A stretch of 27,166 nt of DNA, taken from a virus (lineage: Duplodnaviria; Heunggongvirae; Uroviricota; Caudoviricetes). Each line of letters starts with the position of its first letter. Position 1 is the first letter of the stretch. Positions 15,001 to 18,000 of the stretch are shown here, piece after piece. The stretch lies in the IMG/VR virus record IMGVR_UViG_2526164690_000039. One strand, given 5' to 3'. A program made the position numbers.

Positions 15001-18000
15001 GGCCTTAGTTGGTCAGATATCTTGGAACTCGCTTTTCAGCGACGTAGGACGAATGTCCGTTGTTACAAAGAGCGGGGTTACTTATGCTGCTGATGCTCTA
15101 CGCGATACGAACACCAGATTTTCCTTTTTCACAGGTTTATAACCCGTGAAATTACGAGTGGCTTCTTCGATTGCATTCGCTTTATCTGGGGAAGCTCTTC
15201 GAAACCCATATACAATCTGATCAAGATAGCCAACTGAAGTATTCGCTAATGCGGCGAGTCGCTTCCATTCCTCACTAGAAGCCTCTTTTCGCCAGCGTAG
15301 TAGTTCATTACTCATTAGTGCCTCCGTTTATCACACAGAGCGACTTTACCATTTTGATAAATAAAACGCAATGAAGATTTATCAAAATGCATATTTATCC
15401 ATTTGCTAAATAGAGGGAGAATCGTGGGATGGAAAACAAAGATATTCGCAAATCGAATCTGGCGTTTTTGCTAGATGAGCATAAAAAAATCGCGGGTAAC
15501 ACTAATGCAAGCTTTGCCGATAAGCTTGGAGTTAGCCCTTCTCAACTCACGCAAGTCTCCGGTGAAAAAAGCACTCGAAACATAGGGGATAAACTAGCAA
15601 GAAAATTCGAAGCCGCACTTGGGTTACCTAATGGGTGGCTTGATTTGGTACATGATGTAACACCAATTGCATCATGCTCAGATTCTTTAACTTTTGTCGG
15701 TCAGGTAAGAAAAGGGTTAGTGCGCGTGGTTGGTGAGGCAATTCTTGGTGTTGATGGTGCCATCGAGATGACCGAAGAGCGCGATGGGTGGCTCAATATT
15801 TATAGCGATGATCCAGATGCCTTTGGTCTTCGTGTGAAAGGAGACAGCATGTGGCCCAGAATAAAATCAGGAGAATATGTACTCATTGAGCCTAACACCA
15901 AAGTATTCCCGGGGGATGAGGTGTTTGTCAGAACTGTTGAAGGACACAACATGATCAAAGTTCTTGGCTATGACAGAGATGGAGAATACCAATTTACAAG
16001 CATCAACCAGGACCACAGGCCAATAACGTTGCCTTATCATCAAGTAGCAAAGGTGGAGTATGTGGCTGGTATTCTGAAGCAATCTCGCCATCTGGATGAC
16101 ATCGAGGCAAGGGAGTGGCTGAAAAGTTCGTGACTTCATCGTCACATAGCTGGTAACCAGTGGCCTGAAGAGACGTTTGGGTGATGTGATAGAGATCATT
16201 ATTCAATTCGATTGAGAAAAATCATCATAAGGTTTATATCCATTTATTAGATTTTATGTGTATAAATAGTTAAAAATGCACGATGTAGAGATATTTGTGC
16301 TTAACATCAATTAATCATTGCTAAATCGTGCTTATTGTTCAGAAATCGCCCAAGTCATATTGAAAATCTGTTGGCGAACACCTATATAAGGAGTATAGTT
16401 AGTGACCCAAAACGTATTGCCAATCAACAAGAGCTTGCATGACCGAGCTGTTGATGAATTTAATCGTCTGCATGGAACAATGATTGGCGAGATTAGTGCA
16501 ATGCTGAAAACAGCTAAAGTAGCGCCATTGGTGGATCTTCGTAAGAAAGATCCTACCTTTTCGAACGTTGTCGCAGAATTACGGACATTCAGAGACGTAT
16601 GTAATGCTCTGCTCCCATACTTTCGTGTAGATAAGACCAGCGAAATCGCTGTCATCGATAAGTTACTTATACTGGCTAATGACCTGGCTCAAGCCATCGA
16701 TGCTGACGATCCTGACGCATTGTGCGCAGCAATAGCAGCCCTTGATGTTGAGCCTTACATTTAAACGAGGGGAAAAAAAATGACTAAAGCGTTTGACTAT
16801 ACTGCCGTTAGTAAGCTTTTGGCTGAAATGCGCGGATGTGTAGAGCGCGTTCAAAATCTACGCCGCGACTTTGAAGCTCACATCAATCATTCACAAAAAG
16901 CGGCTTGATACTTAAGTTAGATGACAGAACCCGGCCTCAGCGCCGGGTTTTCTTTGCCTCACGATCCCCACACCTAATAACACCTTAACCAATTGTATTT
17001 ATTGAAAAATTGATAGATACAACTTTCTAAACCACGAAATTCTGATCCCCCTCAAGTCTCTTCATTCCTTCTGATAAATTCCCGCAATCAAATAAAAAAC
17101 CATAATAATCAACAGGATATTTGAAAACCCAAACAATTTATCATTTTGCTATTGCCATCAGTTTATCATTTCGATAAAGTCAACTCATCAGCAGGACGCT
17201 GTAAGCCAAACGGAGCAGACTGGCAGGCTCTTTAAACAACGTCGAACACTCGACTACGTGGCTGAAAAGCCAGATCACCCAACCACATAAGCTGTGGGAT
17301 GCAATGCCGAAGTAACCGTCTCAGGAGGAGCTTCGAGATTGCATCGCCAAAGTTTATTCGGGAGGAATCTATGTCCAGAAAAACAGAATTTAAAGGCACC
17401 GCAGCTTCTCGCCGTAGAGCTCGTCGCGCAAACCTGCAAAGTCAGGAGGCGATTAGCTCCGACAAGCTACACAGGCCAACCCCTTCACGAGTGGTCTTGC
17501 AATGCAAGCGCAAACCAGCAATGAGAGCAGAAGTTATAACTCTGACAACGTTGACCAGAAAATATGAAGGTTCAACTTGTCTTCCAAACGTAGCCATTTA
17601 CGCGGCAGGCTACCGGAAATCAAAACAACTGACAGCGAGGTGACGATCCCCCCCGCCGTAGAGGAACTAAATTAGCTCATCAGCTTTACCAGCAAAGCGC
17701 ATATAACACTCATGGAACCAGACGTCAGGTATAACAAATTTCTCTTTACCTGACGCGCTGTAAGTCACACCTGAGCGATGGAGAAGGCCTTTTCTCATAA
17801 GAGATAAAGCGACCGGATCGCCGTGCTTAAGTACGATTTTGTTATTTGCCATAACAGCAAATGCTAAAACCTCTTTTTCCTGAATACTCAGAGAATTGAA
17901 TAGGCGCTCAGTCTCCACAATTACTTTAGCCTCATCTCTCTTACTGAGATATTTTTTATATCTGTCTGAAGATGCCAGAAATATAAACTCCATCCCCCTG

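Follow-up and report, generated by a model that had tools for sequence, protein, structure and literature searches.

The window examined here is the whole 27,166-nucleotide stretch of viral DNA recorded in IMG/VR as IMGVR_UViG_2526164690_000039. It is a lambdoid prophage integrated beside ybhC, and between its cI-type repressor gene and its pL-like promoter it carries two small genes, which were named ORF120 and ORF42 for the lengths of their products, 120 and 42 amino acids (aa). The first-pass annotation of the window had described them as a two-gene cassette occupying the slot that holds rexA and rexB in phage lambda, and had considered the cassette a candidate for a new exclusion or defence system. 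Both open reading frames (ORFs) were found where that annotation had placed them, ORF120 with an AAGGAG ribosome-binding site (RBS) and a GTG start. The Shine-Dalgarno (SD) sequence of ORF120 occupies 16388-16393, 8 nt before the GTG, and ORF42 carries a strong RBS of its own, with the SD sequence GAGGGG at 16767-16772. The cassette region of the window was identical to that of a prophage in Escherichia coli O103 strain RM8385.

Comparison with homologous loci showed that the pair is a genuine, self-contained two-gene cassette, as indicated by selection, pairing and position. The ratio of nonsynonymous to synonymous substitution rates (dN/dS) for ORF120 was approximately 0.05-0.12 against homologues from Citrobacter, Serratia, Hafnia, and Pantoea, indicating purifying selection; for ORF42 it was 0.07-0.17 in three divergent comparisons, the two closest pairs giving higher values on very few changes. 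An ORF of 42-44 aa was present 12-40 nt downstream of the ORF120 homologue in all 15 distinct loci examined, and a short partner ORF also follows the remote homologues of Vibrio (49 aa) and Gilliamella (38 aa). The identities of the two proteins to those of the window move together, being 42% for ORF120 and 40% for ORF42 in Xenorhabdus, and 73% and 76%, respectively, in Hafnia. Two adjacent, co-directional small genes thus co-occur in every locus examined, as is expected of a toxin-antitoxin (TA) pair.

The cassette was detected in 89 of 5,426 complete E. coli genomes, with O26 and O103 strains among the carriers, and several other Enterobacterales have it as well. In E. coli it is near-clonal, since 86 of the 89 carrier genomes are at least 99% identical over the entire cI-to-N region, and this might suggest that the ORFs are non-functional and owe their conservation only to the recent spread of one prophage. 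However, homologous pairs with identities down to about 30% occur in Citrobacter, Hafnia, Pantoea, Proteus, Xenorhabdus, Serratia, Vibrio, and Gilliamella, with dN/dS far below 1, and confident structural models were obtained for both proteins (see below). The possibility of non-functional ORFs is therefore effectively refuted.

Nucleotide alignment with lambda confirmed the placement of the cassette in the rexAB slot on the cI strand. Homology between the window and lambda restarts exactly at the terminator behind ORF42, runs on upstream of oL, and resumes at the pL transcript start. The sequence AACCCGGCCTCAGCGCCGGGTTTTCTTTGCCTCACGAT at the terminator is identical to the lambda sequence after rexB, the pL transcript start CATCAGCAGGACGC is common to the window and lambda, and E. 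coli records annotated as rexB match the window from 16928 onward. The left-hand junction was seen in the viral contig L027, in which cI is 98% identical to lambda cI and the cassette sequence follows the cI stop codon directly, in the place of the cI-rexA spacer of lambda; in this contig the cassette replaces rexAB from the cI stop codon to the terminator.

The cI of the window itself is of a different type from that of lambda. Behind it lies a 28-nt fossil of a lambda-type cI 3′ end, which is common to prophages with other cargo and looks like the trace of an earlier repressor-gene exchange. Homology to those prophages stops at 16182-16193. Because cargo-specific DNA begins after the fossil, the exchangeable unit appears to extend from approximately 16185 to 16926 (about 740 bp), and the limits proposed earlier for the cassette (16134-16955) were corrected to these junctions, at about 16185 and at 16927. 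The strong terminator said to close the pair is present, with a 9-bp G+C-rich stem (16927-16950) followed by a T-tract and a centroid fold of -16 kcal/mol, but judging from its lambda homologue it belongs to the lambda-type backbone rather than to the cassette, and marks the right-hand junction of the cargo. A consensus terminator scanner missed this hairpin, probably by extending the stem into the T-run. The features of the region are listed in Table 1.

Table 1. Features of the cassette and the surrounding immunity region (positions in the window)
Feature	Position	Strand	Remarks
cro		opposite to cI	upstream of cI
cI-type repressor	15429-16133	+	helix-turn-helix (HTH) and Peptidase_S24 domains; PF00717, E 3.8e-16; LexA family regulator in RefSeq
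Fossil of lambda-type cI 3′ end	16157-16184	+	28 nt; encodes ..QWPEETFG-stop; base-for-base match to the ends of lambda cI and L027 cI
AT-rich cargo-specific spacer	16185-16359	+	about 50% identity between distant cassettes, equal to background
Conserved promoter/RBS/start element	16360-16410	+	includes P1, P2, SD, GTG at 16402, and the first three codons
ORF120	16402-16764	+	GTG start at 16402
ORF42	16780-16908	+	ATG start at 16780
Intrinsic terminator	16927-16957	+	hairpin and T-tract; homologue of the lambda terminator 3′ of rexB
pL-like promoter	17152-17180	+	TTGCCA-17-TAAAGT, flanked by operator repeats; downstream limit of the slot
N	17371-17643	+	PF25694
SieB superinfection-exclusion homologue	17667-18206	-	PF14163, E 1.5e-19; phrog_1301

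Prophages with the same or a near-identical cI were found to carry other cargo in this slot. In L003 (E. coli 2015C-4944), a HigB-like/HTH/third-gene operon lies in the slot behind a near-identical cI (1471-2812) and gave PADLOC matches to PD-Lambda-2_A and PD-Lambda-2_B, the third gene being PD-T4-9_C-like. PD-Lambda-2 acts against lambda vir and has been validated by experiment as a TA-like abortive-infection system (PMC9519451). L003 thus shows the cassette naturally replaced, as an allele, by a defence system of validated function. Other cargo comprised 1) a DUF3024 gene, matching the PADLOC candidate PDC-S43, together with a NYN gene; 2) an unannotated gene with a DUF1828 gene, giving a weak match to PDC-M24; and 3) an SDH-family Clp-fold protease and a 299-aa uncharacterised protein, neither of which matched PADLOC. 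BstA, like RexAB, is encoded directly downstream of a repressor gene, and the interval from cI to N is known as a hotspot of mosaicism (PMC8585504). The expectation that this slot carries exclusion and defence functions was thus borne out by PD-Lambda-2 and the two PADLOC candidates here, and by BstA and RexAB elsewhere.

Lambda rexAB, which excludes T4 rII mutants in lysogens, and the cassette have the same position: both lie on the cI strand and are bounded by the cI stop codon and by the same terminator. The cassette is likewise a two-gene unit, presumably on the lysogenic transcript of the repressor, with an additional internal or own promoter. The proteins are different. RexA (279 aa), a soluble two-domain protein, and RexB (144 aa), an inner-membrane protein, are much larger than the products of ORF120 and ORF42, and the DNA-binding domain of RexA has no counterpart in the cassette. 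RexB has four transmembrane helices (PMC11077077), whereas no transmembrane segment was found in either cassette protein, and both are predicted to be soluble (maximum 19-residue Kyte-Doolittle values of 1.22 for ORF120 and 0.34 for ORF42). As had been noted at first pass, there is no likeness to RexA or RexB, neither a sequence nor a fold relationship being detected.

The DNA around the start of ORF120 proved to be an unusual feature of the cassette. From -45 to +12 relative to the GTG, cassettes were 79-83% identical where the coding sequence was only 53-60% identical, and DNA further upstream in the same loci was about 50% identical, which is the background level. The 18-nt core of this element occurs once in the window, with 0 occurrences expected by chance. 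The promoter candidate P1 (TTGAAA-17-TATATA, 16360-16388), already pointed out in the first-pass annotation, is present and lies in the conserved element; it is overlapped by P2 (TTGGCG-17-TATAGT, 16371-16399), which is likewise conserved. A consensus promoter match alone carries little weight in this AT-rich DNA, where 3 promoter-like sites were found against 5.3 expected. The -10 hexamer of P1 overlaps the SD sequence, and transcription from P1 is predicted to start at approximately 16395, giving a leader of about 7 nt; the predicted mRNA thus lacks the AAGGAG RBS, so that expression of ORF120 independently of pRM, as first suggested, is no more than a possibility. Transcription from P2 is predicted to begin just inside ORF120.

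One reading of these observations is that both proteins are made from RBS-bearing read-through from the repressor promoter and that transcripts from the cassette promoter mainly serve ORF42. Such a promoter would resemble lambda pLIT, an additional promoter serving rexB. The lambda rex genes are transcribed from pRM (PMC11077077), and a scan of the + strand between cI and ORF120 of the window showed no terminator-like site. Three other candidates in the region were rejected. A hairpin holding the SD sequence in its loop folded no better than shuffled sequences (z = -0.69); a LexA box in the element was, by eye, only a partial CTGT-N8-ACCT that was not conserved in other loci; and the prophage small RNA svsR (PMC12803456) lies at the cI 3′ end of another phage and is unrelated to the cassette.

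ORF120 encodes an acidic protein of 13.2 kDa with an isoelectric point (pI) of 4.9. It is predicted to form mainly a four-helix bundle, the AlphaFold2 (AF2) model (predicted local distance difference test score, pLDDT, 81.8) containing helices at residues 5-40, 53-73, 79-101, and 104-115 and a one-turn helix at 43-47. Its family comprised 36 clusters at 50% identity among 1.84 billion representative proteins, none of them annotated; barring fragments and a few N-terminally extended proteins, the members have a single domain of about 105-130 aa. Positions conserved throughout the family are mostly hydrophobic core residues, in addition to K39, P51, P118, and a ..NPSF.. turn, and the C-terminus AIAALDxKPYI is invariant among close relatives. 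No conserved set of polar residues suggesting catalysis was observed in the family; we therefore read ORF120 as a probable binding protein and not an enzyme, and no toxic activity can be inferred for it. A HEPN-like or Doc/Fic-like toxin was also considered and rejected, since neither an Rx4-6H nor a Fic motif is conserved in the family.

Database searches with the two proteins were in agreement with the earlier statement that neither belongs to a nameable family. No match was found to Pfam at E ≤ 1, to NCBIfam, or to PADLOC, and the sole PHROG matches of the pair at significant E values were 13858 and 12503, the latter for ORF42, both listed as "unknown function". Nothing meaningful came up when 32 family members and the remote relatives were scanned against Pfam, NCBIfam, and PADLOC, and PADLOC-DB 2.0 had no match for the proteins of the window or for the Vibrio and Gilliamella relatives. 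The profile and structure searches suggested at first pass also yielded no characterised homologue, only generic helical-bundle folds: a profile search of PDB sequences returned only de novo designed helical bundles, a composition effect, and the best Foldseek hits, with E values of 0.6 against PDB and 0.34 against BFVD, were to generic helical bundles and uninformative. A full-text literature search with the RefSeq protein accessions and the PHROG numbers found no paper.

ORF42 encodes a basic protein of 4.8 kDa (pI 9.1) that ends in ..QKAA. It is predicted to be a single basic amphipathic helix, as the AF2 model showed one continuous helix from residue 7 to 41 (pLDDT 94) and the hydrophobic moment was 1.35, compared with 0.55 in shuffled sequences, 0.6% of which exceeded it. 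A lone helix of 35 residues would be unable to fold by itself and would need a partner surface, most obviously that of the acidic bundle whose gene ends 15 nt upstream. The last three residues of the small partner were KAA in 14, LAA in 1, and KIA in 1 of 16 distinct sequences, 15 of which thus end in AA, and KAA is kept in the Vibrio and Gilliamella partners, which are otherwise unalignable; no feature of the small protein is better conserved than the terminal KAA. At the core of ClpX degrons of the ssrA class is a C-terminal Ala-Ala whose carboxylate is free, and the terminal VAA of self-cleaved LexA is said to have been identified as a ClpX signal by Neher et al. in 2003. Because of this terminal Ala-Ala, ORF42 may be a short-lived ClpXP substrate, which we regard as a lead and not a result. 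The classes of terminal degrons recognised by ClpX, including the ssrA class, are established and have been reviewed (PMC12723719).

The properties of the two proteins allow the cassette to be viewed as a counter-defence or host-modulating moron, in which the acidic bundle would inhibit a host defence or stress pathway, for example as a mimic, with the helix as co-factor or chaperone, and would shield the prophage at induction or benefit the lysogen. A small, acidic, all-helical, non-enzymatic protein would suit this role, such a profile being common among phage inhibitor proteins, as would rapid diversification and the moron architecture of the cassette (see below). However, anti-defence genes are usually expressed early in the lytic cycle and not from the lysogenic transcript, known anti-defence proteins do not typically come with an obligate partner whose terminal tail is conserved, and ORF120 had no similarity to any viral structure in BFVD. 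We consider this view unlikely.

Outside the window, the cassette was usually found beside a repressor gene. The gene directly upstream of the ORF120 homologue encoded a Peptidase_S24 repressor in 24 of 28 distinct cases, belonging to many immunity types and mostly less than 20% identical to the cI of the window, and an S24 repressor was upstream in 51 of 53 viral contigs that bear the element, have an assignable cassette and reach far enough upstream. Among isolated phages, only Proteus phage Pm34 in the collection searched carried the cassette, again after the repressor. The remote homologues of Gilliamella are in P2-like prophages, between the P2-type C repressor gene and int. Other sites of the cassette were 1) a prophage edge beside host genes in Pantoea; 2) a position adjoining the tail tip J gene and a Bro-N gene in Serratia; 3) a position adjoining an antirepressor gene in locus L053; and 4) an island among large unannotated proteins, in two chromosomal contexts, in Vibrio parahaemolyticus. 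The same element and pair are found at the first three of these other moron sites. From its distribution, the cassette is an autonomous moron that strongly favours the lysogenic operon.

Several of these loci had further features. In V. parahaemolyticus (L056-L058, 3369-12315), the pair consists of proteins of 104 aa and 49 aa, the latter ending in AKAA, and lies among four proteins of 663-826 aa without a Pfam match, the three tested being also without a PADLOC match; because it occurs in two chromosomal contexts, this block is probably an uncharacterised mobile island. In Gilliamella sp. wkB178 (L059, 4674-5807), three tandem Phage_CI_repr paralogues of the P2 C type precede the ORF120 homologue and an integrase gene. 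In Hafnia (L011, 5400-5732), an extra 110-aa ORF without a PADLOC match lies between the S24 repressor gene and the cassette, which suggests that the slot can stack cargo.

The tight linkage to repressors in two unrelated types of temperate phage, with lambdoid cI and with P2-type C, would be explained if the cassette were an accessory of proteolysis or of the lysogeny switch. RexB, from the same slot in lambda, has been reported to inhibit the breakdown of lambda O, Phd, and MazE that depends on ClpX and ClpA, and RexA modulates the cI/Cro switch (PMC11077077). A link to ClpXP is possibly shared. In a RexB-like manner, the KAA helix might engage ClpXP as a competitor or adaptor and tune the stability of O-like replication proteins, cleaved repressor fragments, and antitoxins; alternatively, by binding to the repressor/Cro switch, the pair might bias induction or the reversal of induction. 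The conservation of the terminal KAA above all else in the small protein and the binder-like, non-enzymatic look of both proteins are in keeping with this explanation. It is harder to reconcile with the cassettes lying away from repressors, at the Pantoea prophage edge, the Serratia J gene and the Vibrio island, and the accompanying repressors are less than 20% identical to each other. A hypervariable large subunit and a second family (see below) would also not be expected of a cassette touching conserved host machinery or one repressor type. A role of this kind is accordingly rated as rather doubtful.

A second cassette family was found behind the same element. The 18-nt core was present in 60 IMG/VR contigs; in approximately 34 of these it heads ORF120-family genes, a distant branch included, in 24 it heads a different helical protein of 115-125 aa ("family B"), and in the remaining 2 it is followed only by a 17-codon frame. 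The family B proteins matched neither the ORF120 profile nor Pfam, and homology between the two cassette families was not supported (hhalign probability 2.7%). Behind the family B gene come an ORF of about 40 aa, with KAA or MAA as its last residues, and a terminator of the same CCCGGCC..GCCGGG type, and an S24 repressor gene was upstream in 21 of 21 family B contigs with enough upstream sequence. These contigs lie among L063-L122 and include L074 (element at 798-815, - strand), L066, L068, L104, L067, L108, L114, and L088. A megablast search of complete E. coli genomes (about 85% identity or more) gave no match to family B, and one isolated phage, Klebsiella phage vB_Kpn_RAH1, carries it.

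From these comparisons the architecture is more conserved than the proteins: the element is constant, the bundle-sized protein behind it is variable, and a helix with a KAA tail and a terminator complete the unit. The constant flanks could serve as recombination linkers for cargo exchange, by analogy with boundary sequences known from lambdoid phages.

Taken together, we tentatively propose, with a probability of roughly 0.35, that the cassette is a TA-like, protease-gated module for conflict between phages. The support for a defence role is positional and architectural. According to this proposal, both proteins would be made in the lysogen, by read-through of the repressor transcript (RBS included), from the own promoter of the cassette, or both. 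The ORF42 helix would bind the ORF120 bundle, and its KAA tail would act as a ClpXP-type (ssrA-like) degradation tag that makes the small protein short-lived. As long as synthesis goes on, the labile helix would keep the bundle protein neutralised. A superinfecting phage would shut off host expression, or a phage protein would displace the helix; the helix would then decay, and the freed bundle protein would bind and block a host or phage target non-catalytically, so that the infection is aborted or excluded. The complementary charge of the pI 4.9 bundle and the pI 9.1 amphipathic helix, as modelled, counts for this proposal. A function in an arms race would also fit because the large subunit is hypervariable behind a constant element and because a second, undetectably related family has the same architecture.

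Several points weigh against the proposal of a conflict module. ORF120 has no recognisable toxin fold or catalytic motif by Pfam, NCBIfam, PADLOC, or Foldseek, and no PADLOC model exists for it. ORF42, a single helix, has no DNA-binding domain, and the promoter element is common to two unrelated-looking protein families; both make classical TA autoregulation unlikely. The tail is KAA in place of the canonical LAA, so its recognition by ClpX is inferred. How ORF120 would be started from its own promoter outside a cI context is left unaccounted for by the predicted RBS-less mRNA, and read-through from the repressor promoter does not account for expression at repressor-free sites. Furthermore, the near-constant placement beside a repressor gene would fit lysogeny control equally well.

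The same obligate pairing, putative labile partner, and patchy mobile distribution would also be shown by a purely selfish addiction module, in which ORF42 would be a labile antidote and cells losing the prophage or its immunity region would be killed or arrested, with no anti-phage role. Integrated prophages, however, are rarely lost by segregation, and the cassette replaces known exclusion and defence cargo in the same slot; in addition, the diversification of the large subunit suggests an external, evolving target. Addiction as the sole function is therefore considered quite improbable.

The proposed conflict module resembles several known systems in part. PD-Lambda-2 and RnlA-RnlB are examples of prophage-borne TA-like abortive-infection systems in which a labile antitoxin is encoded behind the toxin. 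With them it shares the co-directional order of a larger protein first and a small partner second and a mobile, patchy, prophage-borne distribution, the cassette partner carrying a putative protease tag; PD-Lambda-2, moreover, occupies the same slot behind a near-identical cI. It differs from them in that PD-Lambda-2 has HigB-like and Xre-peptidase components and RnlA is an RNase, whereas the cassette has no recognisable toxin domain and its partner is one bare helix without an HTH.

The BstA-aba system of Salmonella prophage BTP1 and its relatives is similarly linked to the site just after the repressor in diverse phages. In that system, a DNA element covering the upstream region and the first codons is functionally important (PMC8585504), and a comparable element is unusually conserved in the cassette. 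BstA differs in being a single, much larger protein that has no Pfam or PADLOC family in common with the cassette. Each aba is cognate to its BstA variant, whereas the cassette element is the same across two families, which suggests that it serves expression or recombination and not self-immunity.

Like lambdoid morons in the sense of Hendrix and Juhala, the cassette has a promoter-like element, a terminator, and sharp junctions, is present or absent among near-identical prophages, and uses several insertion sites. It differs from them in that the terminator in the cI-pL slot is supplied by the backbone, and "moron" is a structural category and not a function.

Other observations were made in the immunity region of the window. 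With sieB located just past N, the region already holds one recognised exclusion gene. Between pL and N (17228-17254), the boxA-like sequence GCTCTTTAAACAA is followed by a GTCGA-ACAC-TCGAC hairpin, an arrangement resembling nutL; the scanner flagged this hairpin only as a terminator-like stem on the opposite strand. A 286-aa low-complexity ORF rich in Glu, Ala, Lys, and Arg lies at 18570-19430, and its RefSeq counterpart is annotated as a TolA-like pseudogene interrupted by a stop codon. In an Rfam scan of 15900-17500, no match rose above noise.

The cI-pL interval is the classic location of exclusion genes expressed in the lysogen, as exemplified by rexAB, BstA, and PD-Lambda-2, and most of its cargo is still listed as "hypothetical". 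Uncharacterised cargo at this site is therefore to be expected, and the logic of guilt by location is already established; as far as could be determined, what is new here is the protein families, the obligate KAA-tailed helix, and the element common to two cassette families. A wider proposal would be that such cassettes form a new class of exchangeable two-protein modules in temperate phages of Gammaproteobacteria, in which a constant element precedes a hypervariable, non-enzymatic helical protein of about 120 aa, belonging to one of at least two undetectably related families, and a KAA helix of about 40 aa, the helix serving as a ClpXP-timed "fuse", the pair as a binding-only sensor and effector of conflict, and the flanks (the 5′ element and the CCCGGCC..GCCGGG terminator) as recombination linkers by which specificities are swapped; in this full form the proposal is speculative and rather unlikely. 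The compact size of about 740 bp and the clean boundaries make a direct swap for rexAB in lambda possible. If the cassette is a tuner of ClpXP or of the lysogenic switch, it would bear on the old question of the other roles of the rex slot. If its role lies in defence or conflict, the known repertoire would gain a two-protein design that is non-enzymatic and protease-gated, and the shared element would be a search handle for more such cassettes, the second family having already been retrieved in this way.

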